A stretch of 64,000 nucleotides of DNA from an uncultured Acidobacteriota bacterium (GTDB lineage: Bacteria; Acidobacteriota; Thermoanaerobaculia; Multivoradales; DATKCC01): assembly GCA_963739795.1 (NCBI GenBank), contig CAVUBL010000011.1, positions 137,215-201,214 on the forward strand. Reading direction: 5' to 3'. The notes below the pieces were generated by a model. It did no database searches. It was not told the origin of the DNA and worked only from the letters and a program-made list of their open reading frames with translations. Positions 3,278-52,325 of the stretch are shown here, one piece after another (within the stretch, counting starts at the first letter, position 1; every line of letters starts with the position of its first letter). A program made the position numbers and the translations under genes.

Positions 3278-3312
3278 GGTTCCCTCCTCCTGCGCCGGGC
3301 CCCGGAGCGGGC

Positions 3313-4134: not shown

Positions 4135-4158
4135 GGCGAGACCTCCTCGAAGTCGATC

Positions 4159-5043
4159 TCAGCCCTTCACCGCCCCTGCGGTGAGGCCGGAGATCAGGTA
4201 TTTCTGCAGGAAGTAGAAGAGGGCCACCACCGGGATCGACACGATGATCGACCCGGCCGCAAAGTAGCCCCACTGCTGCGAATAGCCCCCGACGAAGAAG
4301 CGCAGGCCCACCGGCGCGGTGTACATGACCTCCTGGTCCATGAAGGTCGCGGCCAGGATGAACTCGTTCCAGCCGGTCATGAACGAGAACAGGGCCGTCA
4401 CGGCCACCGCCGGCCGCGCCAGGGGCAAGACGATGCGCAGGAACACCTGGGCCGCGCTCGCCCCGTCGATGAGGGCGGATTCCTCGAGCTCTTTGGGGAT
4501 GGTGTCGAAGTACCCCTTGAGCATCCAGACGCAGAACGGGATGGAGATCGTGGCGTAGACCAGGACCAGGCCGATCCAGGTCGAGCCGAGCCCCAGCCAC
4601 TGGACCAGGATGATGTAGAGGGGCACCAGCATCAGCGTGCCCGGGAACATCTGGGAGACCAGGAAGGCCATGAGGCCGCTGCGGCGCCCGGGGAAGCGGA
4701 AGCGCGAGAAGGCGTAGCCGGCGGTCGACGCCAGGAAGACGCCCAGGAGGGTCGTCGCCCCGGCGACCACCGCGCTGTTGAGCAGCCACCGCCCGAAGGG
4801 CTGATCGGCCCAGACCGAACGGAAGTTCTCGAAGGAGAAGGCCTTCGGCCACGGCAGGACGGCCCGCAGACGATCGAGGGCGGTGGGGTCGACCGGCAGG
4901 TCCACATAGGCGAGGCTCTGCTGGCCCGAGAGGGCGATCGACACCACCCACAGGATCGGGTAGAGGGTCAGGATGACGAAGAAGATCACGATCAGGTGGA
5001 GCGGCAGATGAGCGAAGGCGCCGCGGTGCCGGGAAGCGGTCAT
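4159..5043 (-). CDS. malG: carbohydrate ABC transporter permease, MalG-type
   Basis: 6 predicted TM helices; EAA-loop motif ESALIDGASAAQVFLRIVLPLARP; 4-bp overlap with upstream malF-like gene. Confidence 0.85.
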   Translation of the reverse strand: MTASRHRGAFAHLPLHLIVIFFVILTLYPILWVVSIALSGQQSLAYVDLPVDPTALDRLRAVLPWPKAFSFENFRSVWADQPFGRWLLNSAVVAGATTLLGVFLASTAGYAFSRFRFPGRRSGLMAFLVSQMFPGTLMLVPLYIILVQWLGLGSTWIGLVLVYATISIPFCVWMLKGYFDTIPKELEESALIDGASAAQVFLRIVLPLARPAVAVTALFSFMTGWNEFILAATFMDQEVMYTAPVGLRFFVGGYSQQWGYFAAGSIIVSIPVVALFYFLQKYLISGLTAGAVKG

Positions 5044-7106
5044 AGGCTCTCCGTGGCCCGGGTCACCCAGTTTTGCCAGGCGCCGTAGGCGAAGAGGATG
5101 AGGAAGATGACCGTCGAGTAGGCCGCGGCGTAGCCGTAGCGGTACTGCTCGAAGGCGATCTTGTAAGCCTGGGTGATGAGGATCTCGGTGGAGCCCGCCG
5201 GCTGGCCGCCCGAGACCAGGTAGATGATGTTGAACATGTTGAACGTCCAGATGACCGACAGGATCACCGCCGGCACCAGGGCGGGCTTGAGGGAGGGCAA
5301 GGTGATGGAGCGGAACTGCTGGCGCGCCGTGGCGCCGTCGACCCGGGCCGCCTCATAGAGGTCGGCGGGGATCGACTGCAGAGCCCCCAGGGAGATGACC
5401 ATCATGAACGGGAAAGAGAGCCAGCCGTTGGTGGCCAGCACCGTCACGAAGGCCGTCGCCGGAGTGTCGAACCAGGAGACGGCGTGCCCTCCCAGGAGCT
5501 GGAGAATCTGGTTGATCACCCCGAGCTGGGAGTGGAACATCCCGCGCCAGATGAGGGCGGTGATGTAGTTGGGCATCGCCCAGGGCAGGATCAGGATGAC
5601 CCGGTAGAAAGGCTTCAGGGCGAAGCCCTTGCGGTGGAGGATCAGGGCGAGGAGAAGGCCCACGCTCACCCCGATCGACACGTTCGCGATCGTCCAGACG
5701 ACGGTGAAGGCCAGGGTCCAGTAGAAGCTCGAGTAGTTGATCGCCCGGCCCTCGGGGGTTTCCTCGATCACGTCGGTGTCGCCCAGGATCTCGCGGAAGT
5801 TCTCGAGGCCGGTCCAGGTCTCGGTGATCGGCTGGTCGGAGTTGTAGATGTTGGCGTTGGTGAACGACAGGGCGATGCCGTAGAGGAACGGGAAGTAGAC
5901 CAACACCACCATGGCCACCAGGGCCGGGAGGACGTAGAAGTAGGCCCGCCGGTGGCGCGAGAGGACCCGGCCGGTACGGGCGCCGACGCCCAGGCCGAAG
6001 TAGAGGAACAGGGCCACAGCCACGATGCCGCTGCCCACGGCCAGCCGGGTGAGGCGGCGGGCGAGGACGGCGCGCTCGGGCCCGGCGCCGGCGGTCCGCG
6101 GGCGCCGGAAGGCGTCGACGTCCCAGCGCGCCGGATCGAGCCCGGTGTTGGCGGCGCCCCGACTCGGGGTCAGGCTCGCCAGGAGCGGCTCCGAGCTCTC
6201 GGCCTCGGCGGCGAGGCGGGAGGCGAGCTCCCGGTCGGCCGCCTGCGCGCCCGCGGTGAGGGCACCCACCGACCAGGTTCCGAAGGCGGCCGCCGACGCC
6301 ACCAGGAGCACCCCGGCCACGAGGGTCAGACCGGCCGGATGCGGCCGAAGTTTCCCCAGGCCGACGGCGACCAGGGCGAACAGGGCCAGGGGGGCGAGGA
6401 GCGCGAAGAGGGCCGCGCGGTAGGGGGGGCCGGAGGCGGCGGGCGGACGGGGGGGCGGGGCTCCGGCCTCCCGGGTGGTTGTCGCAGCCTCTGGAACGGT
6501 CTCCACCACCACCGCCCCCACCACCTGGCCGTTCTCTCCGGTCGACTCGATGGGCGCCGCGGCCTCGAGGTGTCCCTGCTGGCGCCGCACCTGGATCTCG
6601 GGCTTCCAGGCCCGACCCTCGCGCCGGTTGGTCTCCACCGCCGCCCGCAGCTCCTGGCCCAGGTCGTAGAGGGGCTTCTCGTCGCGGGCCAGGCGCCGGG
6701 GTGCGGCCGTCTCGCCGACGTCGCCGGGAGCCGTGGAGGCCACCAACCGCTTGGCGCCGAGGTCGATCACCCGGATCGCCACCGCCGCCGGGTGGAGCTC
6801 GGCGAAGTGCTCCACCAGCCGTCCCGCCGGCTCGGCCTCGAGGCCGGCCCGGCCGGTGAGCTCGGCGAGCTCGGCAGCCAGGATCACGGCGTCGCGCACC
6901 TCCCGCTGGCGCTCCTGGGCGGCGCGCGCCCGGGCGAGGCCCCAGGTGCCGGCGCCCACGGCGACGAGGAGGCCGAGGGCGAGGCCGACGGCCAATCGCC
7001 GAGGAGTGATCCTCGGCAGATCCCCCCCGCTACCCCGCCCGGGGCGGTGGGTCGGGTCGCTTGGTGGTTTGGCCCGCATCGTGAGCGCTCCTCTCTTGCG
7101 GCTCAC
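5040..7106 (-). CDS. malF: carbohydrate ABC transporter permease, MalF-type with ~370-aa N-terminal extension
   Basis: C-terminal 320 aa is a canonical UgpA/MalF permease core (EAA loop LYEAARVDGATARQQFRSITLPSLKP); N-terminal part has extra TM helices and a hydrophilic domain; single uninterrupted ORF. Confidence 0.75.
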   Translation of the reverse strand: MSRKRGALTMRAKPPSDPTHRPGRGSGGDLPRITPRRLAVGLALGLLVAVGAGTWGLARARAAQERQREVRDAVILAAELAELTGRAGLEAEPAGRLVEHFAELHPAAVAIRVIDLGAKRLVASTAPGDVGETAAPRRLARDEKPLYDLGQELRAAVETNRREGRAWKPEIQVRRQQGHLEAAAPIESTGENGQVVGAVVVETVPEAATTTREAGAPPPRPPAASGPPYRAALFALLAPLALFALVAVGLGKLRPHPAGLTLVAGVLLVASAAAFGTWSVGALTAGAQAADRELASRLAAEAESSEPLLASLTPSRGAANTGLDPARWDVDAFRRPRTAGAGPERAVLARRLTRLAVGSGIVAVALFLYFGLGVGARTGRVLSRHRRAYFYVLPALVAMVVLVYFPFLYGIALSFTNANIYNSDQPITETWTGLENFREILGDTDVIEETPEGRAINYSSFYWTLAFTVVWTIANVSIGVSVGLLLALILHRKGFALKPFYRVILILPWAMPNYITALIWRGMFHSQLGVINQILQLLGGHAVSWFDTPATAFVTVLATNGWLSFPFMMVISLGALQSIPADLYEAARVDGATARQQFRSITLPSLKPALVPAVILSVIWTFNMFNIIYLVSGGQPAGSTEILITQAYKIAFEQYRYGYAAAYSTVIFLILFAYGAWQNWVTRATESL

Positions 7107-9559: not shown

Positions 9560-11161
9560 TCAGCCCTCCCCCGGGGACGAAGCCCCGGCGTTCGATCCCG
9601 CCCGCGGCCCCACCACCAGGATGCGCGCGCCCTTCGCCGGCACGGTGAGCTCGATGCGGCCGTCGGCGACCGGCACCGTGCCGCCGGCCCAGGCGTCCGT
9701 GGCAGTGGTCCAGGGCCCGGGCGCCTCGAAGCTCGCCGTGGCCGGCACGGCGCCCCGGTTGACCGCCACCACCACGGCGTCCGGACCCTCCGGATCGCGC
9801 CGCACGAAGACCAGCAGGTCGCCGTCGGTGGAGAGGGCCGCGTGGTCGCCGCGCCAGAGCGCCGGATGGGCGCGGCGCAGGGCGATCAGGCGCTGGTAGT
9901 CGCGGCGCAGGGCCTCGTCCCGGGGCCGCCCCGCCCCCGGCTCCACGGGCCGGTCGCCCCACGGCATGTCGCTCCGGTTCTCGGGCCACTCGCCGCCGAG
10001 CCGGCCCACCTCCTCGCCGTAGTCGATGACCGGGATTCCGCGGACGGTCAGCTCGAGCAGGGCCGCCAAGCGAAAGAGCTCACGGTCGTCGCCCAGCAGG
10101 TACAGGGCGGTGGGCACGTCGTGGGACGAGAGGTAGTGGGCGAGGAGGTGGCCCGGGCGCACCGCCTGACGGCCCTCCAGATAATGCTCGAAGGCGACGG
10201 TGCGCCCTCGCCCCTGGAGGAAGGCGAGGGCGCTACCCGAGAAGCCGAAATCGAACCCGGCGTCGAGCTCGTCGCCGGCGAACCAGGGGTCCAGGACCTG
10301 GGTGTTACCGCCCCAGACCTCGCCCAGGAGGAAAAAGCCGGGGCCCAGCTCGGAGCGCGTCCTCTCCCGGTGACGGCGCCAGAAGTCGTGGGAGACGTGC
10401 TTGACCGTGTCGAGGCGGAAGCCGTCGACGCCCACTCGTCGTGCGAGCCCCAGGTGGGCGTCCATCAGGTAGTCGGCGACCTGGGGCAGCTCGGTCTTGA
10501 GGTCGGGCAGCCCGGCGACGCACAGCGTCAGGTCATCGGTGCCGCAGGTGCCCGCCTCCTCGCTGCGCAGCCAGCCGCGGGTGGCCGGATCGGTGAGGTA
10601 GTGCGAGCCATAGCCCACGTGGTTGTAGACCACGTCGAGGAGAACCGCCATGCCGCGGGCGTGGGCGGCTTCGACCAGAGCCCGCAGCTCGGCCTCGGTG
10701 CCGAAGCGCGGGTCGAGGCGGGTGAAGTCGTCGGCCCAGTAGCCGTGATAGGCCCAGTCGGGGAAGCCCGCGCCGGTGACGAAGCCGGGGATGTTCTGGA
10801 CCACGGGGGTGATCCACAGGGCGGTCACGCCGAGGTCGGCGAGCTCGTCGAGATGCGCCGCAAGGCCCACCAGGTCGCCGCCGTGGAAGGTGCCCTTGTC
10901 CTCCGGCTGCACGTCCTGGTCGTTGGCCCGGTCGCCGTCGGCGAAGCGGTCGAGGAGGACCGCGTACAGGATCGCCTCGTCCCAGGAGCCCTGCGGAGTG
11001 ACCCGGACGGCGGCAGGAGGCGCGGCGGTCGGCCCGGCGAGGGGCGCGGTCGGCGCGTTCGCGGGCCGAACCCCGGCGCACGCCCAGGCGCTCACCAGGA
11101 GCCCTGCGGACAGGAGCGCTGCGAGTCCCAGCTCGCCTCGGGAGCTACCCCCCTGCACCAT
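9560..11161 (-). CDS. secreted alpha-amylase family glycoside hydrolase (GH13)
   Basis: signal peptide; GH13 conserved regions VLLDVVYNHVG, DGFRLDTVKHV (catalytic Asp), HYLSSHD; start at internal Met preceded by GAGGAGG. Confidence 0.85.
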   Translation of the reverse strand: MVQGGSSRGELGLAALLSAGLLVSAWACAGVRPANAPTAPLAGPTAAPPAAVRVTPQGSWDEAILYAVLLDRFADGDRANDQDVQPEDKGTFHGGDLVGLAAHLDELADLGVTALWITPVVQNIPGFVTGAGFPDWAYHGYWADDFTRLDPRFGTEAELRALVEAAHARGMAVLLDVVYNHVGYGSHYLTDPATRGWLRSEEAGTCGTDDLTLCVAGLPDLKTELPQVADYLMDAHLGLARRVGVDGFRLDTVKHVSHDFWRRHRERTRSELGPGFFLLGEVWGGNTQVLDPWFAGDELDAGFDFGFSGSALAFLQGRGRTVAFEHYLEGRQAVRPGHLLAHYLSSHDVPTALYLLGDDRELFRLAALLELTVRGIPVIDYGEEVGRLGGEWPENRSDMPWGDRPVEPGAGRPRDEALRRDYQRLIALRRAHPALWRGDHAALSTDGDLLVFVRRDPEGPDAVVVAVNRGAVPATASFEAPGPWTTATDAWAGGTVPVADGRIELTVPAKGARILVVGPRAGSNAGASSPGEG

Positions 11162-12264: not shown

Positions 12265-12825
12265 CTAGGAGTCCGCGCTCGTCTCGCCCGGGGGCGACCA
12301 GCGCTTCAGGAACTCGAGGATCGCCGCCTCCGAGTAGCCCTCTCCGTGCTCGAGCAGGCCGGTGTTCTCCGAGTGGAGGAGCTTGCCGCTCGAATCGAGG
12401 ACAAACAGGTGGGGATAGCCGGGGATGCGCGGGTACCGGCCGAGGAACTTCCGGTTCTCGTTCTCCTTCGAGAAGTTCACGTTGACCGTCACGAAGCCCC
12501 GGTTCCAGGCCTCGCGCACCCGCTCGTGGCTCTCGACGAAGTCGTGGAGACGGTGGCACCAGATGCACCAGTCGCCGCCCACGTCGAGCAGGATGCGGCG
12601 GTGGCTCGCGCGCGCCTGGACGATGGCCTGGGTGAGCTCGGCCTGGGGATCGGCCTTGGGATCGTAGAGGACGTCGCCGGAGGAGGCGGCCGGGGCTTCG
12701 GCGGCCACGGCCAGGACGGCCCCGGTGGCTCCGGCCGGGGGCGCGGCGGCCGCCGCGGCCGGGAGGGCGGCGAGGAGGGCGAGGGCGAGGAGGCTCGCCG
12801 GGAGGGGGCGGGGAGAACGGGTCAC
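12265..12825 (-). CDS. secreted thioredoxin-fold protein (CxxC)
   Basis: GTG start with strong RBS CCAGGAGGT 7 nt upstream; signal peptide PLPASLLALALLAALPAAAA; WCIWCH thiol-disulfide motif. Confidence 0.6.
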   Translation of the reverse strand: MTRSPRPLPASLLALALLAALPAAAAAAPPAGATGAVLAVAAEAPAASSGDVLYDPKADPQAELTQAIVQARASHRRILLDVGGDWCIWCHRLHDFVESHERVREAWNRGFVTVNVNFSKENENRKFLGRYPRIPGYPHLFVLDSSGKLLHSENTGLLEHGEGYSEAAILEFLKRWSPPGETSADS

Positions 12826-12901
12826 GGAATACCTCCTGGGGCGGATCTCATGGACTCTCGGGACTCGGGGCAGCGGCTCGCTCCGCGGCCGGCCGCGAGC
12901 C

Positions 12902-13489
12902 ATGCTATACCGTCGTCGCCGCGACCCGTGCCAGAATCGGGCCGTGACGACTTCCGAGCCTCCCGCCGCCGCGCCGGCCGGGGCGGCCGCCGCTGGACGC
13001 CGCCGGGCCACGGGCGCCGGCGCCTCGGCCCGTATCCGCCGCTCCTGGGACCGCCTCTCGCGCCTCCCCGGGGGGCGTTGGCTGTTCAGCAAGATGGTGG
13101 GCTGGACCGCGCCCTACACCGGCACGATCGGTGCCCGCGTCCAGGAGGTCGTCCCGGGCCGAGCCCGCCTCACTCTGCGCGACCGGCGGCGGGTCCGCAA
13201 CCACCTGCGGTCGGTCCACGCCGTCGCCCAACTCAACCTCGCCGAGGAGGCGTCGGGGCTGGCGGTCGTCTACTCCATGCCCGACCATCTGCGGGGCATC
13301 CCGGTGCACCTGGAGATCGATTACCTGAAGAAGGCCCGCGGCACCATCACCGCCACTTGCGAGCTTCCCGGCCCGATCCCCGATCCGCCGGAGGGCGAGC
13401 GGGTGAGCTTCGAGGCCCCGGTGACCCTGACCGACCCCGGGGGCGACGTGGTCGCCCGCGCCCTGGCGCGCTGGGTGATCGGCCGGTGA
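12902..13489 (+). CDS. hotdog-fold protein, DUF4442/YiiD C-terminal-like thioesterase
   Basis: RLSRLPGGRWLFSKMVGWTAPYTGTIGARV...NHLRSVHAVAQLNLAE matches DUF4442 pattern; start ambiguous (ATG 12902 or GTG 12944). Confidence 0.5.
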   Translation: MLYRRRRDPCQNRAVTTSEPPAAAPAGAAAAGRRRATGAGASARIRRSWDRLSRLPGGRWLFSKMVGWTAPYTGTIGARVQEVVPGRARLTLRDRRRVRNHLRSVHAVAQLNLAEEASGLAVVYSMPDHLRGIPVHLEIDYLKKARGTITATCELPGPIPDPPEGERVSFEAPVTLTDPGGDVVARALARWVIGR

Positions 13490-21502: not shown

Positions 21503-21638
21503 ATAACTAAGAGCTCCTCTCACGTACGCCGTCGGTGAATCGGCCCACACTACCAGGGCGCGGCCTCTCCCACCGAGCCCACGGCCGCCGCCGCTCCACC
21601 CGAGGGAAAGTTTGACGGTTGGCGTGGGATCTGTTCAG

Positions 21639-23135
21639 ATGACCGCAGTGAAAGTTGCCCTGTTGAAGGCCCCGGTGGGTGGCATCATCGGGCTCGAGAT
21701 GATCACATTCGTCGAGCCCCTGGGGCTCGAGTGCGTGGCGGGCGGCCTCGAGCAGAACGGTCACGAGTGCCGGATCGTCGACCTGCGCATCGACGGCTTC
21801 GAGCGCGGCCTGGCCAAGGCGCGGGCCTTCGGGCCCGAGGTCGTGGGCCTGCAGTGCAACTTCACGACCGAGCGTTTTCGCCTGCTGCGCCTCGCCCGGC
21901 GGGTCAAGGAGGAGTTCCCCGAGGCTCTGCTGGTGGTGGGCGGCCACGACGCCTCCCGCGATCCCGAGTGGTTCCTCCACCCGGCGATCGACGCGGTGGC
22001 GGTGGGCGACGGCGAGGAGGTCCTGCCGGCTCTGGTCGACGCCTACGAGGCGGGCAAAGACCTGGCGCGGGTGCCGGGTCTGCTGCTCAACCGCCCGGGC
22101 GGCCCGGTGGCCACCGGCCACGCGCCGTCGCGCGACGACATCGACGGGCTTCCCATGCCCGCCCGCCACCTGATCGAGGGCTACGCCGGCGAGTACTACA
22201 TCAACTTCCGCCGGCCCCTGGCGCTCATGGAGACCGCCCGCGGCTGCCCCTTCAAGTGCAACTTCTGCTCGGTCTGGAAGTTCCACGAGAGCACCTTCCG
22301 CGAGAAGTCGCCCGAGCGGGTGGTTCGCGAGCTCGCCCAGATCCAGGCGCCCAACGTCTTCATCACCGACGACATCTTCTGGATGAACGTCCGGCGGGGG
22401 CGCGAGCTGGCGGCGGCGATCAAGGCCTCCGGAATCCGCAAGCACTACACCATCCAGACCCGCTCGGACATCATCACCCGCTTCCCCGAGCTCATCGAGA
22501 CCTGGCGCGAGTGCGGCGAGATGACGATCTTCCTCGGCCTCGAGAAGATCGACGACGCCGGCCTCTCCTCGGTCAACAAGAAGAACACCGTCGCCAACAA
22601 CAACCGGGCGATCGAGATCCTCCAGGACTTAGGGGTCGGCTATACCCCGAACTTCATCGTCGACCCGAGCTGGGAGCGCGAGGACTTCGAGAAGCTCAAG
22701 CGTTGGATCGACAAGACCGGGGCCTACAACAGCGGCTTCTCGGTGCTCACCCCGCTGCCCGGAACCGACCTCTGGGACGAGGTCAAGGACGACGTGGTCA
22801 CCGAGGACTGGGAGCTCTTCGACATCACCCATTCGGTGCTGCCCACCCGGCTGCCGCTCGAGGAGTTCTACCGCGAGCTCGGTGGTCTGTGGAAGCACAC
22901 CATGGACGTGCGCTACGCCGAGCACGGCCGGCTCAAGGTCCACCTCGGTTTGCTCGCCGCCCTGGCGAGCCGCCAGGTGACCTTCCAGGCCCTGCGCAAG
23001 GGAATGCGCATGGGCACCGTCCTGAGCCGCCCGGAGACCTTCCTCCGCGCCCACCGCGAGAGCGAGGAGCGACTTGGCTCCGTGGCCGAGATCCTCGACG
23101 AGAAGCGCCCCCACCCCGCTGCCCGGGCCGTCTAG
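21639..23135 (+). CDS. B12-binding domain radical SAM protein
   Basis: N-terminal cobalamin-binding Rossmann-like domain, then CPFKCNFC (CxxxCxxC) radical SAM cluster motif; ~500 aa. Confidence 0.8.
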   Translation: MTAVKVALLKAPVGGIIGLEMITFVEPLGLECVAGGLEQNGHECRIVDLRIDGFERGLAKARAFGPEVVGLQCNFTTERFRLLRLARRVKEEFPEALLVVGGHDASRDPEWFLHPAIDAVAVGDGEEVLPALVDAYEAGKDLARVPGLLLNRPGGPVATGHAPSRDDIDGLPMPARHLIEGYAGEYYINFRRPLALMETARGCPFKCNFCSVWKFHESTFREKSPERVVRELAQIQAPNVFITDDIFWMNVRRGRELAAAIKASGIRKHYTIQTRSDIITRFPELIETWRECGEMTIFLGLEKIDDAGLSSVNKKNTVANNNRAIEILQDLGVGYTPNFIVDPSWEREDFEKLKRWIDKTGAYNSGFSVLTPLPGTDLWDEVKDDVVTEDWELFDITHSVLPTRLPLEEFYRELGGLWKHTMDVRYAEHGRLKVHLGLLAALASRQVTFQALRKGMRMGTVLSRPETFLRAHRESEERLGSVAEILDEKRPHPAARAV

Positions 23136-23314
23136 CCCGGATTTCTACCCAGCCTCCTGCTGCAACGCCGCATCTGCCCGCATATCCGGCGTTGGGTTCG
23201 GTGCGGCCTCCTCGACGTACTGTCAAGTACGCCTGCGTCGTCCTCCCGTCACCCGCCTTGGATCTACGAACATCTGCGACGTTTCGCCACGGAGGCTGGG
23301 TAGAAATCCGGGCT
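23134..23314. repeat. intergenic palindromic element, copy A (24-bp perfect terminal inverted repeats plus conserved core hairpin)
   Basis: AGCCCGGATTTCTACCCAGCCTCC at 23134-23157 and its exact reverse complement at 23291-23314; core GCGGCCTCCTCGACGTACTGTCAAGTACGCCTGCGTCG at 23203-23240. Confidence 0.8.
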
Positions 23315-24286
23315 CGTCGCCGCGCCTACCTCCGGACGCGGCACGCCCATCTCCGGGTCCCACGCCAGGATCTTGTCGCTCCGGGGGAGCGGCGCCTCGG
23401 GGACCTGTCCCACCGACACGCCGTCCTTCCAGTCCGTCGGGCAAATGGCGACGTAGCGCGCGTAGCCGCCCGTTCCGCCCTGGAGCTTCGGGTAGCCTAT
23501 GGTCACCAGGCAGCCGGTCTCCGGTACCTGGTCCAGATTGGCCACGCCCTCGGCCTGCGTGTAGCCGTGGTGCATCAGCCAGTGCTCGCTGTCGAGGTTC
23601 GGCGTGTCGTCGGTGTCGAGAGTCTCGTGGCCGTGGAAGAGGATGTGGCGCTCCTCGTGGAGGAACTGGACGGCCGCCAGCGATACGCCCGGGAAAACCG
23701 CCCCCGTGGCGAGGGCGGGATCGGGCCAGCGCTTCGACCAGTCGGAGCGGACCATCACCACCGAGCCGGCGGGAATCCTGCCGTTCCTTGCCTCCCAGCG
23801 CTCGATGTCCGAAACCTGGAGGGCGTACCCCGGGTCCTTGGCCACCTGGTCGACGATCGAGATCACCACCAGCGGCCGGACCGCGAAGGTCGGCGGCAGC
23901 TCGTCGATGGACGGGTACTCGGGCGCCCAGTGGGCCGGAGGGTCGAGCTGGGTGCCGAGCTGGTCGGTCGCGAAGTCGTAGTGAGTCGCCTCGAAGCCGT
24001 CGGTCGCATAGCGGTAGGGCTTGCCGGTCGCCGGGTCGAGGGCCGGCCCGAAGGTCGATTTTCCGAAGCCCCGCCAGACCGGGATCGAGGGGGAGACGGT
24101 GTGGGTGAGGTCGATGTACTTGGCACCCTTGAGCGAGTGCTCGTAGACCGACCACAACCCGTGGGCGGGAGACTTCGGGGAGGGGCTCTGCGCCGCCGGC
24201 GGCGGGCCGGCGGAAGGGTTCCGGGCCGCGGGAAGAAGGAGGAGCGCGGCGGCGGCCGCGATGGCGAGAAGGAGGGCTTTCTTCAT
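23264..24286 (-). CDS. putative cyclase family protein (kynurenine formamidase-like)
   Basis: signal peptide; KYIDLTHTVSPSIPVW matches putative-cyclase fold; last ~17 codons and the stop lie inside repeat copy A. Confidence 0.55.
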   Translation of the reverse strand: MKKALLLAIAAAAALLLLPAARNPSAGPPPAAQSPSPKSPAHGLWSVYEHSLKGAKYIDLTHTVSPSIPVWRGFGKSTFGPALDPATGKPYRYATDGFEATHYDFATDQLGTQLDPPAHWAPEYPSIDELPPTFAVRPLVVISIVDQVAKDPGYALQVSDIERWEARNGRIPAGSVVMVRSDWSKRWPDPALATGAVFPGVSLAAVQFLHEERHILFHGHETLDTDDTPNLDSEHWLMHHGYTQAEGVANLDQVPETGCLVTIGYPKLQGGTGGYARYVAICPTDWKDGVSVGQVPEAPLPRSDKILAWDPEMGVPRPEVGAATSPDFYPASVAKRRRCS

Positions 24287-25396: not shown

Positions 25397-26008
25397 TCAG
25401 AGAGGCGCCCAGACCGGCTCGAGGTCCAGGACGAAGCCGGGAAGCTCGGGGTCGCCGGAGACCGTCTCCGGCGCCTCGAGCGCCTCGGCCTCCCGGCCCG
25501 GCCGGTAGACGTGTACCCGTCGCGCGTGCGGATCGATCAGCCAGCCGAGCCGCGCGCCGTTGTCGCGGTACTCCTCCATCTTCGCCTGCAGGGTCGCGAG
25601 CCGATCCGAGGGCGACTTGATCTCCACGACGAAGTCCGGGCACAGGGGAAGGAACTTCTCGCGCGCGTCCGGAGGGATGTCGGCCAGACGGGAGCGGACG
25701 ACCCACGAGGCGTCCGGAGACCGCATGGAGTCATTCGGGAGAATGAAGCCGCCCGACGAGTCGAAGGCGATGCCGGAGCCGTCGCGCTTCGCCCAGGTTC
25801 CGAGCGCGGTGGCGACCTCCAGGCTCCGATGACTGCTCCCTGCCCCCGCTGGCGTCATGACGATGAGATCTCCCTTCGCATCGCGCTCGATCCGCAGCTC
25901 CGGGTTCCGCGCGCACAGCTCGAAGAGCTCGTCGTCCGTTCGGGGGACCACGCTTCCCAGGTCTAAGAGGAGCGGCTCAGGCTCGATGTAGATCGAGATG
26001 CCTCGCAT
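25397..26008 (-). CDS. Uma2 family (DUF820) endonuclease
   Basis: PD-(D/E)xK-like PDFVVEIKSPSD motif and overall Uma2 pattern. Confidence 0.6.
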   Translation of the reverse strand: MRGISIYIEPEPLLLDLGSVVPRTDDELFELCARNPELRIERDAKGDLIVMTPAGAGSSHRSLEVATALGTWAKRDGSGIAFDSSGGFILPNDSMRSPDASWVVRSRLADIPPDAREKFLPLCPDFVVEIKSPSDRLATLQAKMEEYRDNGARLGWLIDPHARRVHVYRPGREAEALEAPETVSGDPELPGFVLDLEPVWAPL

Positions 26009-26261
26009 GGCTTCGCCCGAAGGTTAGCACGGGGTCGAGGACGCCGAGGTCGTCGGATGGCACGGAGATCCTGAAGCGGAGCCCGGAGGACTCAGGCTCC
26101 GTGCAAAGCGTTTCGGCCGGGATGACGATGTGGGGCGGTCAGGGCTGCCATGCCCGATACACAGCCGAAGAGGCCTCCCCCGCAGCTTGGGGCTGGCCGT
26201 CCCGGAGGGCCCCGGCCCGCCCCAAGGGGCTCGCTCAGAGAATCCTTCCGCATTCGGCCGC

Positions 26262-26348
26262 CCAGGCATCCATCCTCGCGGCGTTGCGCTCCCTGCGACA
26301 TAGGCCCTGCTATGCCTCGGTCGCGCGCCTTGCGAGAATGGCGCCTGC
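26262..26348. repeat. degenerate copy (F) of the palindromic element core
   Basis: GGCGTTGCGCTCCCTGCGACATAGGCCCTGCTATGCCTCGGTCG aligns to the copy B/C core with compensatory changes; imperfect flanking inverted repeats (CCAGGCATCCATCCTCGC / GCGAGAATGGCGCCTG). Confidence 0.5.
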
Positions 26349-26385: not shown

Positions 26386-28881
26386 CTACTCGGCCGCCAG
26401 CGCCACCGCCGGGTCCACCCGCGTCGCCCGCCGTGCAGGAATCGCCGTTGCAGCCAGCACCACCAGCGTGAGCAACCCCGCCACCGCCAGGAACACCTCC
26501 GGATCGAGCGGCGTCACCCCGTAGAGCATCCCCGCCATCGCACGCGTCAGGAACACGGCCCCTACCAGCCCCGTCCCCAGCCCCACCGCCAGCACCCGCA
26601 CCCCGTGGCCCAGCACCAGCCGGAACACCTCCCCGCTCGACGACCCCAGCGCCACCCGGACCCCCAGCTCCCGCGTGCGCTGCGCCACCGCGTAGGCCAG
26701 CACCCCGTAGATCCCCACCGCCGCCAAGAAGAGCGCCACCAGCGCGAACACCGTCGCGAGCAGCATCGGCAGCCGCGTGTCCACCAGCGCCCGGTCGATC
26801 CGCTCGTCCATGGTCATCACGTCGTCGAGGGGTAGCTCCGGATCGAGTGCGCGGAGCACGCGCCGCACGCCCGGCACCAGCGCCTTCGGATCACCGTCGG
26901 TCCTCAGCGCAACGGTCAGGTTGCTCCGGGTGTCCTGGCTCAGCGGGAAGTAGTAGGCGCCGTGGTTGCTCTCGCCGGCCAGGTCCGAGACCAGGATCTC
27001 GTCCACCACTCCCACCACCGTCAGCCACTCGATCTTCGAAGGGTCCTTCTCGAGCTGGGGCACGCTCTGGGAGATCCGCCCCCCGACCGGGTCGCGACCC
27101 GGCCAGTACTTCTCCGCCATCCAGCGGTCGACGATCGCCACCTTCTGCGAGTCCGCCGTGTCCCGCTGGTCGAACGGCCGGCCCTCGAGCACCTTGATCC
27201 CCAGGGTCTGGAAGTAACCGGGCGACACGATCCGCCGGAACGGCGCCCGCACCGATTCGCCCGGCTGCGGCTCGTAGCCCTCCACGGTGATCACGCTCGA
27301 GCTCGAGTTGTTGCCGAAGGGGATCGCGTCGGTGAGGCCGGCGTGCACGACCCCTGGAAGCGAGCGAGCCCGATCGAGGAAGCGGGAGGCGAAGGCGCGC
27401 CGGGCCGGGTCGTCCTTGTAACGGCTGTCGGGCAGCGAGACGGTGGCGGTCAGCACGCCGGCGGGCTGGAAGCCCGGATCGACCGCCAGCAGCTTCTGGA
27501 AGCTCGTGAGCAGGAAGCCCGCTCCCACCAGGAGCACGAAGGCGAAGGCCACCTGCAGCGCGACCAGGGTGCTCCGGGCGACGACGGCCCGGCGCGAGGC
27601 ACTGCCCGTTCGGCCCTCCTCGCGGAAGATCGAAGAGAGGTCGCTGCGGAACACCTGGACCACCGGGATCAGCCCGAAGACCGTGCCCAGCACGAGTGCT
27701 GTGGCGAGGGTGACCAGAAGCACCCCGCCGTCGACCCCGATCTCCGCGCCCCGCGGGATGTGCTCGGCACCTAGAGTGGCAAGCAGTCGCAGGCTCCAGT
27801 ACCCGGCGAGGACGCCGAGGGCACTCCCGACGAGGGTGAGCACCAGATTCTCCGTGATCAGCTGGCCGGCCAGGCGACCGCGTCCCGCTCCCAGGGCGCA
27901 GCGCGTGGCGAGCTCCTTCCGGCGGGTGCTGGTGCGCACCAGGATCAGGTTCGCAATGTTGCCACAGCCGATCAGCAGCACGAAGAGGGCGCCGCCCAGG
28001 AGCAGGGCGAGCTTCGGCCGAATGTCGCGGATCATGTCGTCGCGCCAGGGCTCGACGATCGTGTGGAAGCCGGCGTCGATCAGGAGCTGCTTGAACTGAG
28101 GGAAGCGCTCGAGGTTCCGGGCGTTCAAGGCGTCGATCTGGGACCGTGCCTGGGCCAGCGAGGCACCCGGGGCCAGGCGGGCGATCATCTGCCAGGAGTT
28201 CGAGTGGCGCCGGTCGTCCGAGCGGTCCTCGGTCGTGAAGGCGGCCGGGACGATCAGCTTGGCGCGGGTGTCGGGCACCTCGAAGCCCCGGGGCAGGACT
28301 CCGATCACGGTGTAGGGCTCGCCGTCGAGGCGGAGGTCCTGGCCGAGGGCATCGTCGCGGCCCCCGAACAGCCGCTGCCACATGCCGTAGGTCAGGATCA
28401 CCTTCTTCTCGTTGCCCACCTCGCCGTCCTCGGCGCTGAACGCGCGGCCGCGGAGGACTTTGACGCCCAGCACGTCGAAGATCGACGGGGTGGCCACGAG
28501 CGTGCGCACGCGCTCCGGAGTCTCGCCGTGGAGCAGCGCCGGTCCCTGGGTGCGGAACAGGGCCACGCTCGCGAAGGCTCCCACCTGCTTCTTTCGGTCG
28601 TAGAAGTCCGGTACGCCGTTCGACGACCGCTCGACGCCTGCGCCTGGGTAGCTGTTGTTGAGGATCACCAGGCGGTCGGAGGCCGGGAACGGGAGGGGCT
28701 CGAGGACGACCGACCGGAAGACGCTGAAGGTGGCGACCGCCGCGCCCATGCAGAGCGTCAGGATCAGGAGGACGGTGACGGTAAAGCCGCGACCGCGCGC
28801 CAGGGTGAGGAACGCGTGGCGGAGGTCCCTGCCCAGGAGCTCGGGGCGGGCACGGTCGGGGCGCGGCGGTCGGTCGGTCAT
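26386..28881 (-). CDS. ADOP-family ABC transporter permease (MacB/FtsX-like, duplicated)
   Basis: ~830 aa with two FtsX permease domains and large periplasmic domains; N-terminal DLRHAFLTLARGRGFTVTVLLILTLCMGAAVATFSVF typical of ADOP/MacB. Confidence 0.8.
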   Translation of the reverse strand: MTDRPPRPDRARPELLGRDLRHAFLTLARGRGFTVTVLLILTLCMGAAVATFSVFRSVVLEPLPFPASDRLVILNNSYPGAGVERSSNGVPDFYDRKKQVGAFASVALFRTQGPALLHGETPERVRTLVATPSIFDVLGVKVLRGRAFSAEDGEVGNEKKVILTYGMWQRLFGGRDDALGQDLRLDGEPYTVIGVLPRGFEVPDTRAKLIVPAAFTTEDRSDDRRHSNSWQMIARLAPGASLAQARSQIDALNARNLERFPQFKQLLIDAGFHTIVEPWRDDMIRDIRPKLALLLGGALFVLLIGCGNIANLILVRTSTRRKELATRCALGAGRGRLAGQLITENLVLTLVGSALGVLAGYWSLRLLATLGAEHIPRGAEIGVDGGVLLVTLATALVLGTVFGLIPVVQVFRSDLSSIFREEGRTGSASRRAVVARSTLVALQVAFAFVLLVGAGFLLTSFQKLLAVDPGFQPAGVLTATVSLPDSRYKDDPARRAFASRFLDRARSLPGVVHAGLTDAIPFGNNSSSSVITVEGYEPQPGESVRAPFRRIVSPGYFQTLGIKVLEGRPFDQRDTADSQKVAIVDRWMAEKYWPGRDPVGGRISQSVPQLEKDPSKIEWLTVVGVVDEILVSDLAGESNHGAYYFPLSQDTRSNLTVALRTDGDPKALVPGVRRVLRALDPELPLDDVMTMDERIDRALVDTRLPMLLATVFALVALFLAAVGIYGVLAYAVAQRTRELGVRVALGSSSGEVFRLVLGHGVRVLAVGLGTGLVGAVFLTRAMAGMLYGVTPLDPEVFLAVAGLLTLVVLAATAIPARRATRVDPAVALAAE

Positions 28882-29001
28882 CGGTCTCCTCCCGGGCAGC
28901 TCGGAAGCGGGCCACCTCACCCGATCTAACGGGTGGGCGGGGCGGCGGGTTTCACAAGAGTGCCGCGAAGACCGCGGGACGAGCCGGCGAGCGCGCGCGG
29001 C

Positions 29002-38649: not shown

Positions 38650-39030
38650 ATGGACGAACCGCTCACCCTGACCTTCGAGACCTTCTGGACCTGGGTCGCT
38701 TCGCATCCCAACTGCATCCTCCGGGCGGGGACGCCGGAGGCGGTCCTCTACGACGACGAGGACCTCCACTGGCACTTCGCGGCCGAGGGGCCGCAGACTC
38801 TGGTGGTGCAGGTGATCCGGGGCAAGCGCCTGGTGGGTGAGCTACTCGTCGAGCCCGAGCACGTGACCTACGTCCAGGGCTCGGCCGGCGATCCCGAGGA
38901 CGAGTTCGTCTTCGAGCTGGTCTCCGAGACGGAGGCCGAGCAGATCGTCGCCTACTTCTTCGTCCTGGCCCACGGGTACGAGCCGCAGGAGGCGACCCAC
39001 CCGCCGTCGTCCAGGCTGCAAGTTCACTAG
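38650..39030 (+). CDS. hypothetical protein
   Basis: 126-aa ORF with balanced, non-low-complexity composition (MDEPLTLTFETFWTWVASHPNCILRAG...); no recognisable family. Confidence 0.4.
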   Translation: MDEPLTLTFETFWTWVASHPNCILRAGTPEAVLYDDEDLHWHFAAEGPQTLVVQVIRGKRLVGELLVEPEHVTYVQGSAGDPEDEFVFELVSETEAEQIVAYFFVLAHGYEPQEATHPPSSRLQVH

Positions 39031-39193
39031 TGGTCCGTCAACCTTCAATTGACGGGTCCCACCGGTCCTTCACGCCGCTGGCGGCGTTGCTCCTCCTCGA
39101 CGTAGGCCCCGCTACGCCTGCGTCGGAGCGCCTGGCCAGCGACGCGAAATCCTCGCCGGATACCCTGTCAATTGAAGGTTGACGGACCACTAG
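39027..39193. repeat. intergenic palindromic element, copy B (27-bp perfect terminal inverted repeats plus core hairpin)
   Basis: CTAGTGGTCCGTCAACCTTCAATTGAC at 39027-39053 and its exact reverse complement at 39167-39193; core GGCGTTGCTCCTCCTCGACGTAGGCCCCGCTACGCCTGCGTCGG. Confidence 0.8.
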
Positions 39194-39264
39194 CCTGAGC
39201 GGGGAACCCCGTCCAAGCCGAGATCGGGCGGGAGAGGGATCGAGGGGTTGCGGGGGGGATCGGC

Positions 39265-40236
39265 TCAAATCGCCATGGCGTCGGCGAGCGCCAGGAGGCT
39301 CGTGTCGAGCTCCTTCTTCCGGCCCGCAACCTCCTCCAAGGGGGTGGGCAGGATGTCGCGGCCCTGGAGGCCCACGAGGACTCCGGCCTCGCCGCGGGCG
39401 AGCTGCTCGACCGCCGCCGCCCCGAGGCGGGTGCCCAGGAGGCGGTCGAAGACCCCCGGCGCGCCACCCCGCTGGACGTGGCCGAGGATGGTGAGGCGCA
39501 GCTCGAACCCGAGGCGCCCCCGGTGGGCCTGGAAGTAGTCGACCAGGGCGGTGGCGTTGTAGCGCGCCCCCTCGGCCACCACCACCAGGGCATGCGGCTT
39601 GCCCCGATCGTAAGCGGCAAGCAGGTCGCGGGCGACGTCCTCGGGGTCGCACGGGCGCTCGGGCAGCACGATGGACTCGGCGCCGCCCGCGATGCCTGAC
39701 ATCAACGCCAGGTACCCCGAGTCGCGTCCCATCACCTCCACGAGGAAGGCCCGCTGGTGGGCCGAGGCGGTGGTCTTGAGGCGGTCGATGGCCTCGAGGG
39801 CCACGTTGAGGGCGGTGTCGACGCCCAGGGTGATGTCGGCTCCGTAGAGGTCGTTGTCGATGGTCGAGGCGACCCCGACCACCGGGAACCCGTGCGCGAA
39901 GAGGGCGCGGGCGCCGGCCTGGGAGCCGTTGCCGCCGATCACCACGAGGCCCTCGACCCCCGCCGCCTCGAGCTGGGTGAGGGCGCGCCGCTGGCCCCCT
40001 TCCTCCTGGAACAGGGCGGTCCTGGAGCTGCCCAGGACCGTGCCCCCCTGCTGGATGATGCCACCCACGTCCCGGGCGCCGAGCTCCGAGATGTCTCCGG
40101 CCATGAGCCCGGCGAACCCCCGGCGCACGCCGTAGGCTCGCCATCCCCGGGCGATGGCGCTCCGCACTACGGCGCGGATGGCCGCGTTCATCCCCGGCGC
40201 GTCCCCGCCGCTGGTCAAGACGGCGAGGCTCTTCAT
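39265..40236 (-). CDS. pfkA: ATP-dependent 6-phosphofructokinase
   Basis: MKSLAVLTSGGDAPGMNAAIRAVVR N-terminus, GGNGS, MGRDSGYLAL motifs. Confidence 0.9.
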   Translation of the reverse strand: MKSLAVLTSGGDAPGMNAAIRAVVRSAIARGWRAYGVRRGFAGLMAGDISELGARDVGGIIQQGGTVLGSSRTALFQEEGGQRRALTQLEAAGVEGLVVIGGNGSQAGARALFAHGFPVVGVASTIDNDLYGADITLGVDTALNVALEAIDRLKTTASAHQRAFLVEVMGRDSGYLALMSGIAGGAESIVLPERPCDPEDVARDLLAAYDRGKPHALVVVAEGARYNATALVDYFQAHRGRLGFELRLTILGHVQRGGAPGVFDRLLGTRLGAAAVEQLARGEAGVLVGLQGRDILPTPLEEVAGRKKELDTSLLALADAMAI

Positions 40237-44682: not shown

Positions 44683-45080
44683 GCGACTGGGTCACCCCCC
44701 TCACCCTCAATCCCTCTCCCACCCTCGCGGGGGGAGAGGGACGCCCCCGCCCTGCTCTCAGGCCGTCAGGGAGTCCGACGAACGCCGATCCACCCCTCAC
44801 ACTCCTCCCATTTCAGCGGAGCTGTCGTTCCCATCGCCGAGGAGGCAGGCCGCGGGGCCGCGTGGTTTCTCGCCGGCGCAGAGATCCACTGGATCACCCC
44901 CCTCACCCTCGATCCCTCTCCCACCCTCAAGGTGGGCGAGGGACGCCGCCGCCCCCTTCCTCCACCAAGGAGTCCGACGAACGCCGATCCACCCCCTTGC
45001 CCCTTTTCGGCGGAGCTGTCGCTTCAACCGCCGAGTGGGCAGGCCGCGGGGCCGCGTGGTTTCTCGCCGGCGCAGTCTGC
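44683..45080. repeat. two tandem ~200-bp direct repeats (about 88% identical) with internal GC hairpins
   Basis: unit 1 ~44683-44888, unit 2 ~44889-45080; shared blocks GATCACCCCCCTCACCCTC, CCCTCTCCCACCCTC, GGAGTCCGACGAACGCCGATCCACCCC, GCAGGCCGCGGGGCCGCGTGGTTTCTCGCCGGCGCA. Confidence 0.8.
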
Positions 45081-48370: not shown

Positions 48371-49317
48371 GCCGCCGGGGAAGCTCGGTGGCGGGACTCC
48401 TCGTCGGCGGCTTGGCCCTCGCCGGCGTCTCGTGCTCCAGCTCGGCCTGGGTACACCCGCGCCCGGTGCAGGAGCCGACGTCCTCCGAGGTGGCCGAGCT
48501 CCAAGCCCGCGTCCTCGATCTCCAGCGTCAGGCGGCGGTGACCCAGGTCGAGCTCGAGCGCTTGCGCCAGGAGGTGGCCCGGCTCGAGGCCCGGTCTGGG
48601 GTTGCTCCCGGCACCGGGAGCCTGGCTCCGGCGAGCTCCGGCGGATCGGCCGGCGCGGCGAGCGCCCCCTCCGCCTCTGGCCACGCCGAAGGGAACTTCG
48701 AAGTCGAAGATCTGACGGACGAGGCCCGCCACGCTCGGGCAACCCCCGGGACCCCCCCCGGAACGGCATCCCGGACCGCAGCCGCTCCGGCGCCCCCTCC
48801 CGGCCCGCCGCGGGCGGTCGAGGAATCGCCCGCGCCCGGGCCTCGTCCGCAAGCTCCCCGCCAGTCCACCGCGACGGTGACACCGGCGGAGCCGGAGCCC
48901 GAAGCGACCCCGGCGCAGGGCGCCGCGGGGAACGGGATCAGCTCCGTGGCGCAGTCCCTCTACGATCGGGGCTACACCCTGTACCACCAGGGCCGCTTCC
49001 TCGACGCCGAGGCGAGCTTCCAGCGCTTTATCCAGGCCTACCCCGACACCGAGCTGACCGACAACGCCCAGTACTGGATCGGCGAGTGCCGTTTCTCGCG
49101 GGGGGACACGAAGGGTGCCCTGGCGGCCTTCCAGGAGACCGCGCGCCGCTACCCGGAGGGCAACAAGGTCCCCGACGCCCTGCTCAAGGCCGGCGAGTCC
49201 ATGGCCAAGCTGGGCGACGTCGAGGGTGCCCGGAAGGCGTATCAGGACGTCAAGAAGCGCTTCCCCGGGACCACCGCCGCGGCGGTGGCGGACGATCGGC
49301 TCGCCGCCCTCCCCTGA
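48367..49317 (+). CDS. cpoB: Tol-Pal system protein YbgF/CpoB (coiled coil plus TPR)
   Basis: signal/lipobox LALAGVSCSS, N-terminal coiled coil (AELQARVLDLQRQAAVTQVELERLRQEVARLEAR), C-terminal TPR (LYDRGYTLYHQGRFLDAEASFQRFIQAYPDTELTDNAQYWIGEC). Confidence 0.65.
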   Translation: MSRRGSSVAGLLVGGLALAGVSCSSSAWVHPRPVQEPTSSEVAELQARVLDLQRQAAVTQVELERLRQEVARLEARSGVAPGTGSLAPASSGGSAGAASAPSASGHAEGNFEVEDLTDEARHARATPGTPPGTASRTAAAPAPPPGPPRAVEESPAPGPRPQAPRQSTATVTPAEPEPEATPAQGAAGNGISSVAQSLYDRGYTLYHQGRFLDAEASFQRFIQAYPDTELTDNAQYWIGECRFSRGDTKGALAAFQETARRYPEGNKVPDALLKAGESMAKLGDVEGARKAYQDVKKRFPGTTAAAVADDRLAALP

Positions 49318-51309: not shown

Positions 51310-52059
51310 ATGACTGGGAAGCCTGGAAGCAGGACCGCGCGGCGGCTGTGCGTGGTGGGAATCCTGACGTTCCTGTTCCTCGGGTTGGACACCGCTCCGA
51401 CCCTTCCCGCCATGTCGATCTCGCTGCCCGACCCGCCGAACCTCGAAGAGGTGGCGATGATGGAGGAGATGGCCGACTGGCTGGTGGGCCCCGCGGCCCA
51501 GGGCCGCCATCTCGACACCATGGTTCGGGACAATCTGGCCGATCTCATCCGGGAGAAGCCCCGGAGCTTCGAGCTGTTCCGGCGCACTCTCGACAACAAC
51601 GCCGAGCGGGAGTTCCTGCACGGTCTGCCTTACGGCGCCGTCATCCAACAGGTCGCCGATGACAACCGCCTGGACGGCCTTCTCCTGGCCGCTCTGGTCG
51701 AGGTGGAGTCGAGCTTCCTCCCCGACGTCGTCTCTCCGGTGGGCGCGGTGGGCCTGACCCAGGTCATGCCGTCGACCGCCCGGTGGCTGGGCAACGGCGT
51801 TGACCTTACCGACCCCGACTCGAACCTGGAGGTCGGGGCCCGGTACCTGAGTCAGCTCCTCGACCGCTTCGACGGCAACCTGGAGCTTGCCCTGGCGGCC
51901 TACAACGCCGGCCCGGCGGCGGTCCTCAAGTACGGAGGCATGCCGCCCTACCGCGAGACCCGCAGATACGTCTCCCGGGTGCTGACCCTCTACGCGGACC
52001 ACAATCGCGAGGTCTGGAAGACCTCCGGCGGGGTCGAGCAGCTCGCGTCGTTGGACTGA
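51310..52059 (+). CDS. lytic transglycosylase domain protein (SLT family)
   Basis: signal peptide; catalytic motif LLAALVEVESSF, GLTQVMPSTA, AYNAGPAAV. Confidence 0.8.
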   Translation: MTGKPGSRTARRLCVVGILTFLFLGLDTAPTLPAMSISLPDPPNLEEVAMMEEMADWLVGPAAQGRHLDTMVRDNLADLIREKPRSFELFRRTLDNNAEREFLHGLPYGAVIQQVADDNRLDGLLLAALVEVESSFLPDVVSPVGAVGLTQVMPSTARWLGNGVDLTDPDSNLEVGARYLSQLLDRFDGNLELALAAYNAGPAAVLKYGGMPPYRETRRYVSRVLTLYADHNREVWKTSGGVEQLASLD

Positions 52060-52218: not shown

Positions 52219-52325
52219 CTGAGTGCGGCGCCTGCCGCGAGGTGTGAGAGAGCGCTCCGATCGATTCAGTCGGTCGGAGCGCTCGCGCGTTTGGGAAGCG
52301 GGAGCGGTGGGGAGGAGGCTAGAGG

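Follow-up and report, generated by a model that had tools for sequence, protein, structure and literature searches.

A mobile hairpin element with a conserved structured core and exchangeable ends between two convergent genes of an uncultured Acidobacteriota bacterium

The convergent gene pair and copy B

The 64,000 nucleotides of DNA analysed here (contig CAVUBL010000011.1 of assembly GCA_963739795.1, positions 137,215 to 201,214; hereafter called the window, with all positions given in its own numbering) originate from an uncultured Acidobacteriota bacterium. Between a gene for a conserved protein and the phosphofructokinase gene pfkA they carry an element of 167 nt, here termed copy B, which belongs to a family that is multicopy, mobile and non-coding, is bounded by terminal inverted repeats (TIRs) and a target duplication, and forms a hairpin along its full length. 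The features of the locus are as follows, where F denotes the strand of the element that appears to be selected for folding.

38650..39030, plus strand: flanking gene for a conserved 126-amino-acid protein without Pfam family, its stop codon lying inside the target duplication
39027..39193, minus strand (F strand): copy B, the complete element including both CTAG target copies, as supported by homology breakpoints, the empty orthologous locus and folding
39027..39030, no strand: left target-site copy CTAG, with the duplicated TA at 39028-39029, containing the TAG stop codon (39028-39030)
39190..39193, no strand: right target-site copy CTAG, with the TA at 39191-39192
39027..39056, no strand: left TIR, 27 nt perfect, 30 nt at 97%
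39164..39193, no strand: right TIR
39085..39133, minus strand: central conserved module of 49 nt (covariance model R1, 59.2 bits, E 3.8e-13; covariation)
39099..39118, minus strand: apical 7-bp stem and 6-nt loop (GGCGUAG / CUACGUC, with an invariant G.U pair), from folding and covariation
39265..40236, minus strand: pfkA, phosphofructokinase (PF00365, E 4.5e-102)

The open reading frame (ORF) at 38650-39030 is a real gene, since the G + C fraction at its third codon positions (GC3) is 0.93 and since it has 689 homologues at E <= 1e-10. The initial annotation had described the element as filling the spacer between this gene and pfkA. The two genes are indeed convergent, but copy B takes up 167 of the 234 nt that separate them and leaves a gap of 71 nt on the side of pfkA, and these approximately 71 nt are kept in the orthologous locus described below.

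The first 27 nt of copy B, CTAGTGGTCCGTCAACCTTCAATTGAC at 39027-39053, are the exact reverse complement of its last 27 nt at 39167-39193, so that the perfect TIR noted at first reading could be reproduced to the base. At 97% identity the repeat extends to 30 nt (39027-39056 and 39164-39193). The 27-mer of the arm occurs at these two sites only in the window, and none of 100 shuffled sequences contained a match. The left arm had been thought to start at the TAG stop codon of the upstream gene; the stop codon does lie inside the arm, which itself begins one base earlier, at 39027. Folding of both strands also bears out the predicted extended hairpin of about 165 nt, with a minimum free energy of -107.9 kcal/mol for the plus strand (z = -12.6) and of -119.8 kcal/mol for the minus strand (z = -12.4). 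At its centre copy B has the string CGACGTAG-GCCCCG-CTACGCCTGCGTCG (39098-39125), and read on the minus strand the module is AGGCGCUC-CGACGCA-GGCGUAG-CGGGGC-CUACGUC-GAGGAG-GAGCAACG.

An orthologous locus in which the element is missing (L122/L123) has the same gene order, with an ABC transporter gene followed by the hypothetical gene and the phosphofructokinase gene facing each other, a flanking protein that is 89% identical, and an intergenic region of 57 nt. After in-silico deletion of the element together with one CTAG copy, the window aligns straight through this locus (window ...GTTCACT-AGCCTGAGCGG..., ortholog ...GTCCACTGACCCTGCGCCG...). The arms of copy B thus came in with the insertion and do not descend from ancestral gene-end sequence, which agrees with the initial view of a TIR-bounded inserted element. 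In addition, seven near-identical copies of the B type are present in two other Acidobacteriota metagenome-assembled genomes (MAGs), where the similarity is bounded exactly by CTAG...CTAG and the flanks are unrelated.

As a separate observation, the motif GGGAGAGGGATCGAGGGGTTGCGGGGGGGATC is located at 39221-39262, between copy B and the stop codon of pfkA, and is also found in the orthologous locus without the element (L122, about 2900-2940). Its first 17 nt recur at 44906-44922 of the window and, in another Acidobacteriota locus (L088), at 6100-6116 and 6166-6182. Either another short interspersed repeat or a conserved signal at the 3' end of pfkA may account for the motif.

Further copies in the window

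According to the covariance model there are exactly five copies in the window, each with E <= 1.5e-8 (next match E 0.03), which corresponds to about one copy per 13 kb. Besides copy B these are the following.

23132..23316, minus strand (F strand): copy A, with arms unlike those of B, 64.3 bits
26224..26388, minus strand (F strand): copy D, variant core type, 41.7 bits
52057..52222, minus strand (F strand): copy C, with a 3-bp TGA duplication (52057-52059 and 52220-52222), 59.5 bits
53641..53823, plus strand (F strand): copy E, degenerate, with arms 85% complementary and two changes in the core, 52.0 bits

The core pattern used for searching (see below) lies on the plus strand in copies A, D, B and C and on the minus strand in copy E, the F strand being in each case the opposite one. 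Comparison of copy B with the window by BLAST and by a degenerate core pattern detects relatives of its central approximately 60 nt and none of its arms. Each copy lies within a long inverted repeat of its own with arm sequences that are unrelated from copy to copy, and all five are predicted to form long hairpins (z from -5 to -12.6). Copies A and B had initially been regarded as one element type, and copy A does have GTAC/GTAC in its core at the matching positions (23213-23240), as claimed. The core is common to both, whereas the arms are entirely different and the copies number five rather than two.

Contact with stop codons is seen in copies A, C and D as well as in copy B. The left CTAG of copy A holds the stop codon of a radical-SAM gene (21612-23135), its right CTAG having decayed to CTCG; the left TGA of copy C is the stop codon of an SLT-domain gene (51310-52059); and copy D adjoins the stop codon of an FtsX/MacB permease gene (26386-28920, minus strand). 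Copies A, B and C are situated between convergent genes and copy E between divergent ones, and the genes beside the five copies are functionally unrelated.

With respect to the surroundings of these copies, a putative cyclase gene (23264-24286, minus strand) appears to run about 55 to 60 nt into copy A before its stop codon (window 23264-23324). The change from CTAG to CTCG at the right end of copy A would have destroyed an original minus-strand TAG stop codon, and a MITE-derived C-terminal extension of the putative cyclase is possible, MITE standing for miniature inverted-repeat transposable element. The gene just downstream of copy D (25397-26008) codes for a Uma2-family putative restriction endonuclease (PF05685, E 7e-43) with no evident link to the element. 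Inverted repeats of similar geometry at 10001-10156, 12743-12993 and 48709-48856 lie inside coding regions and are unrelated to the element, and a scan of the window for tRNA and tmRNA genes found none.

Distribution across bacteria

A scan of 185,579 species genomes with the core pattern CGACRTA-N8-TAYGCCTSSGTCG, for which we estimate some 17 chance matches, yielded at least 113 loci in at least 10 phylum-level lineages. Among the matches listed, the carriers comprise Thermoanaerobaculia and other Acidobacteriota, Syntrophales, Geobacter and other Desulfobacterota, Planctomycetota, Nitrospirota, Methylomirabilota, Bdellovibrionota, Spirochaetota, Bacillota (Sporomusaceae), Actinomycetota and lineages of the candidate phyla radiation. 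Conservation extends beyond the pattern and can be summarised as ...CGTTG-[stem]-CTCCT-CGACRTAN-N6-N'TAYG-CCTGCG-TCG-[stem']-GCCTTG.... Such a distribution implies that the family moves between phyla. Among annotated plasmids, a single, unannotated copy was found. It lies at about 26,215-26,337 of pGLOV01 from Trichlorobacter lovleyi SZ, with a DUF2149-family gene on one side and cobN on the other. Two exact pattern matches in viral contigs were discarded as chance matches, as they lie inside a coding region without the flanking motifs.

An all-against-all BLAST of the 1,254 ORFs within 2.5 kb of the core at the 113 loci among the matches listed revealed no gene family in more than four loci, and no consistently placed transposase was found near the element at these loci. 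Many of the scan matches lie approximately 45 nt from a contig end, which is expected because a repeat of this kind breaks assemblies. Together with insertion at stop codons, such breakage has consequences for MAG quality and for how gene 3' ends are annotated.

Of related interest, short-read contigs of the same organism that carry the flanking genes of copy B terminate at the element or inside it (L117, L118 and L119; GCA_964443905.1, Logan run ERR11523667), and in the Planctomycetota bin JBCCGH01 many contigs start about 45 nt from the core.

Subfamily ends, target duplications and insertion sites

The other subfamilies, too, each have specific TIRs and are flanked by a short duplication of the target. 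Subfamilies A, B and E and that of the Thermoanaerobaculia chromosome OY761158.1, which carries many copies, have a CTAG duplication (TA or 4 bp), while a 3-bp TNA duplication that differs by copy (TGA, TCA, TTA or TAA) characterises the C, D, Desulfobacterota and Syntrophales subfamilies. Across 13 subfamily representatives with defined ends, the elements are 122 to 178 bp long and fall into classes of about 122-126, 159-162 and 177-178 nt, with all of the extra length residing in the outer arms. There is no conserved ORF, and substitutions are paired across the arms instead of following a periodicity of three. Short and non-coding, with TIRs, a target duplication and dispersed copies showing insertion polymorphism, the element agrees with MITEs in all of these properties.

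Insertions are preferentially located at the 3' ends of genes. Among 119 instances, 21 lie between convergent and five between divergent gene pairs, and the neighbouring gene turns its end towards the element in 55 vs 31 cases on the left and in 45 vs 26 cases on the right. The overlap with stop codons is explained by the CTAG/TA target preference, because TA-containing sites are largely stop codons in a genome with 71% G + C.

A few copies with unusual structures were also encountered. At L033 (4740-4876) lies a core-less, apparently chimeric copy with a B-like left end (CTAGTGGACCGTAAC...) and the right-hand terminus (...TTTGGAAACGCTGGTCTAG) found in the Thermoanaerobaculia subfamily of OY761158, which could be direct evidence of an exchange of ends between subfamilies. 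At L107 (about 4140-4230) the core is duplicated in tandem. Several Desulfobacterota copies (L036, L037, L059 and L062) are broken near the core by a different small palindrome (CCGGGTACCC...GGGTACCCGG-like), suggesting the nested insertion of another short element. In a Bdellovibrionales MAG (L041, about 3290-3460) a copy directly follows the 3' end of an apparent tRNA gene (...GGTTCAAATCCTCCTCCCGCA).

Conservation of the core and bias towards one putative folding strand

When the 13 subfamily representatives are compared with each other, identity is 30% over the terminal 20 nt, close to the random level, in contrast to 63% over the 49-nt core and 83% over the CTCCT pentamer, which lies outside the search pattern. 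Also, nine additional copies that were found by the covariance model and do not match the regular expression have CGACGCAGGCGUA...UACGUCGAGGAG almost intact. The combination of subfamily-specific ends with a core of some 50 to 80 nt that is homologous across subfamilies is unusual for MITEs.

On the F strand the module consists of a 7-bp apical stem (GGCGUAN/N'UACGUC) on a conserved purine-rich internal loop (GACGCA/GAGGA). Farther out, another loop (CAAGGC/AACGAAG) is conserved as well. In 61 distinct cores the apical helix is 99.5% paired and one G.U pair is invariant, and its two free positions covary. The first of them is G-C in 46 and A-U in 14 cores. At the second, C-G is found in 36, G-C in 19 and U-A in five cores, with one unpaired, and the compensatory G/C swap that had been noticed between copies A and B is thus part of a real covariation. 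The helix flanking the apical stem covaries as well, with some slippage of register, and the eight B-type copies show double compensatory changes at seven arm pairs. The GTAG of the core varies between copies (GTAC, ATAG, ATAT, GTAT).

Mismatches in the arms are unevenly distributed between the strands. In the orientation of the search pattern there are 305 A.C vs 84 G.T mismatches. If only one representative per subfamily is considered, the variable outer arms contain 64 A.C vs 29 G.T mismatches (p = 3.7e-4), and pyrimidine-pyrimidine mismatches outnumber purine-purine mismatches by 91 to 36. Read on the opposite strand F (the minus strand in the case of copy B), the mismatches turn into G.U wobbles and purine-rich loops, and F is the better folding strand in nine of nine elements. 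As judged from the sequences, the mismatch bias points to one strand that would fold, either as RNA or as single-stranded DNA (ssDNA).

Origin of the element and alternative explanations

Taken together, we consider copy B to be a non-autonomous DNA transposon, i.e., a MITE of about 160 bp, from a superfamily in which subfamily-specific TIRs are combined with a shared central module, and we would put the probability of this at roughly 80%. Copy B would have inserted at a CTAG site carrying the stop codon of the upstream gene, and duplication of the target (TA or CTAG) would have regenerated that stop codon. Mobilisation probably occurs in trans by DDE transposases encoded elsewhere. The groups of the IS5 family of insertion sequences (ISs) generate 2-, 3- or 4-bp duplications (PMC3281130 Table 2; PMC2516522). 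The duplications observed here fit the IS5/IS427 groups (2 to 4 bp at YTAR/CTAG) in the case of TA or CTAG and the IS1031 group (3 bp) in the case of TNA, with which they are consistent without being specific for the IS5 family. The likeliest source of transposase might accordingly be this family, with the IS1031 group acting on the TNA type and the IS5/IS427 groups on the CTAG type. IS630 duplicates TA at CTAG and may be an alternative source for the latter. That the element favours stop codons and the 3' ends of genes would result from a target preference for TA sites, which are rare at 71% G + C, in combination with purifying selection against insertions elsewhere. The central module, in turn, may be active in single-stranded, folded form, whether as RNA or as ssDNA, by binding a conserved factor or by otherwise aiding the propagation or persistence of the element, which would explain why the core has survived although the ends have been replaced.

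Several points weigh against this explanation. The apparent invariance of the core is partly imposed by the search pattern, and the sequences within a subfamily are not independent of one another. The strand bias could in principle derive from strand-specific C-to-T mutation instead of selection. The elements are oriented without bias with respect to both the neighbouring genes (18 sense vs 18 antisense in same-strand gene pairs, with crude ORF calling) and the local GC skew (55 vs 60); given this random orientation, the strand bias belongs to the element itself and not to its landing site, and no context at the level of transcription or replication was identified for a single-strand function. 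An autonomous IS with matching ends was not found within 2.5 kb of the 113 listed loci, in the other DNA retrieved or on annotated plasmids, and core-less subfamily termini were seen only in the 5'-truncated L004 and in the core-deleted chimeric L033, neither of which represents an IS. As no partner element was found, the assignment of the transposases is based solely on the length and sequence of the duplications. Finally, a TA and a 4-bp CTAG duplication are indistinguishable because CTAG is palindromic.

A more far-reaching interpretation, which is tentative and falls well short of even odds, would regard the centre as a structured module, functional and self-contained, that MITEs have brought into many phyla, with ends that were repeatedly exchanged to suit the resident transposases. 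These transposases would possibly belong to two superfamilies, IS5/Harbinger-like for TNA and IS630/mariner-like for TA. Under this assumption the module might serve as a binding motif for a protein, in RNA or in ssDNA, or as a processing signal, or it could be a small ribozyme not described so far.

Overlapping with the MITE explanation is the rather doubtful proposal that the element is a small regulatory RNA gene or a cis-regulatory RNA for which the TIR-bearing ends serve as a vehicle only. The strand-biased G.U wobbles, the purine-rich conserved internal loops, the covariation of the apical helix and the unpaired nucleotides kept across phyla would all be in line with such a role, as would the listing of the family as predicted short RNAs 5' of metabolic genes in an earlier study (PMC2700814). 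However, a promoter scan found no sigma70-like promoter in or beside the copies, there is no matching Rfam family, the orientation relative to host genes is random (18 sense vs 18 antisense), gene 3' ends are favoured over 5' leaders, and the flanking genes are functionally unrelated.

It is unlikely that the element owes its presence to retention by the host as a terminator, a stabiliser of mRNA 3' ends or an insulator working in either orientation, especially between convergent genes. The enrichment at 3' ends (21 convergent vs 5 divergent pairs; 55 vs 31 on the left and 45 vs 26 on the right) is what such a function would predict, but a TA/TNA target preference acting together with purifying selection would produce it just as well. 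Likewise, the very stable hairpin on each strand and the position of copies A, B and C between convergent genes would suit a terminator, yet the stem lacks a U-tract on either strand, a terminator scan of the copies was empty, and the orthologous pfkA locus manages without the element. Moreover, a generic hairpin leaves both the conserved unpaired nucleotides and the strand-biased wobbles unexplained. A role in termination, which had been raised at the outset as a point to be checked, accordingly finds no support in the sequence.

Far less probable still is an ssDNA recombination substrate in the manner of integron attC sites, REP/RAYT or the IS200/IS605-type HUH systems instead of a DDE transposon. 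In its favour, the strand that is apparently selected to fold is intrinsic to the element and independent of transcription context, and the conserved extrahelical or unpaired bases resemble those of attC sites. Yet the clear TIRs and 2-4 bp target duplications are not products of HUH or attC systems, no integrase, RAYT or TnpA gene recurs within the 2.5-kb neighbourhoods of the listed loci, the ends are without the attC R''/R' consensus, and REPs measure 20 to 40 nt as compared to 122 to 178 nt here. A chance palindrome or ancestral gene-end sequence, lastly, is refuted by the shuffles (0/100), the fold (z about -12.5), the identical element in unrelated flanks and the empty orthologous site.

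Comparison with known systems

The family has been noticed before without being characterised. In 2009 it was listed in Geobacter metallireducens as the predicted short RNA elements Gmet_R1001-R1024 of approximately 113 nt (PMC2700814, Additional file 4), with GSU0160.1 in G. sulfurreducens and similar sequences in G. uraniireducens and Desulfotalea psychrophila (PMC2700814). The Gmet elements and copy B have the same central motif, given as GRCGTAGCGCTGCTACGCC in that paper. Gmet_R1003, R1010, R1013, R1015 and R1021 read CTCCTCGACGTAGC-GCTGCTACGCCTGCG where copy B reads CTCCTCGACGTAGGCCCCGCTACGCCTGCG, and the GACGTAG-GCCCCG-CTACGCC of copy B fits the central Gmet palindrome GRCGTAG-loop-CTACGCC. 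The CTCCT and CCTGCG flanks are common to copy B, Gmet_R1003 and R1010, and the flanking motifs ..ATCT..CGTTG.. and ..GCCTTGA.. are the same in the Gmet elements. Being multicopy, intergenic and some 113 nt in length, the Gmet elements also resemble the Desulfobacterota subfamilies described here. Most Gmet copies differ, however, by having an apical loop of 5 nt and a lower loop of variant sequence (TTGTG...CCTCCGCG), and copy B in turn is longer (167 nt, owing to longer arms), belongs to a GC-rich Acidobacteriota subfamily and has unrelated arms. In PMC2700814 the elements are treated as putative regulatory RNAs, and their TIRs, duplications, mobility and spread beyond a few Deltaproteobacteria were not recognised. 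No follow-up literature on the Gmet elements was found, and a literature search with the core sequence gave no match. Rfam gave no match at the gathering threshold in the window, and relaxed searches (E <= 10; copy B and two low-GC relatives) retrieved only generic long-hairpin miRNA models. What is new is the conserved structured core with interchangeable ends. The cultured carriers, i.e., G. metallireducens with 24 copies listed in 2009, G. sulfurreducens and T. lovleyi with pGLOV01, make its function directly testable.

A number of candidate identities were considered and rejected. Chunjie of G. uraniireducens is a different element that is AT-rich, with 21-bp TIRs and 9-bp direct repeats. 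REP/RAYT elements (palindromes of 20 to 40 nt with a 5' GTAG and neither TIR nor target duplication) disagree in length, TIRs, duplication and the variable GTAG. For integron attC sites, R'' (RYYYAAC) and R' (GTTRRRY) are absent, no integrase recurs nearby and the copies are single and dispersed. Possible resemblances to helix 45 of the 16S rRNA, the sarcin-ricin loop, K-turns, dif sites and attC were dropped because either the covariation or the register would not fit.

In its general layout the element resembles the Correia/NEMIS, RUP, ERIC, Nezha and Chunjie MITEs, which are likewise small, non-coding, multicopy and mostly intergenic, with TIRs and a short duplication. The duplication types match those of the Tourist (PIF/Harbinger, TNA/TWA) and Stowaway (Tc1/mariner, TA) MITEs and of their bacterial relatives, the IS5 family and IS630. 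Long stable hairpins have also been predicted for the transcripts of classical bacterial MITEs (PMC10969869, PMC3184786). Such MITEs are as a rule defined by conserved ends around an arbitrary interior. From one bacterial MITE to another, the cores are reported to have nothing in common (PMC3184786). The present element reverses this classical pattern, its termini being 30% identical and its core conserved across phyla. The fact that the core was kept while the ends recognised by the transposase and the length of the duplication changed implies that the centre is important for the element or its hosts.

An analogy in layout comes from eukaryotes. Superfamilies of short interspersed nuclear elements (SINEs) such as CORE-SINE, V-SINE and Deu-SINE, which are retrotransposed RNA polymerase III transcripts, combine a conserved central domain of unknown function with lineage-specific ends, which are the portions that the mobilising machinery recognises. 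The element described here has the same arrangement of conserved centre and variable ends and differs from them in being a DNA element with TIRs and target duplications. If its centre should indeed prove to be a self-contained functional module, it would constitute a bacterial counterpart of the eukaryotic SINE core domains and a new class of mobile structured RNA.

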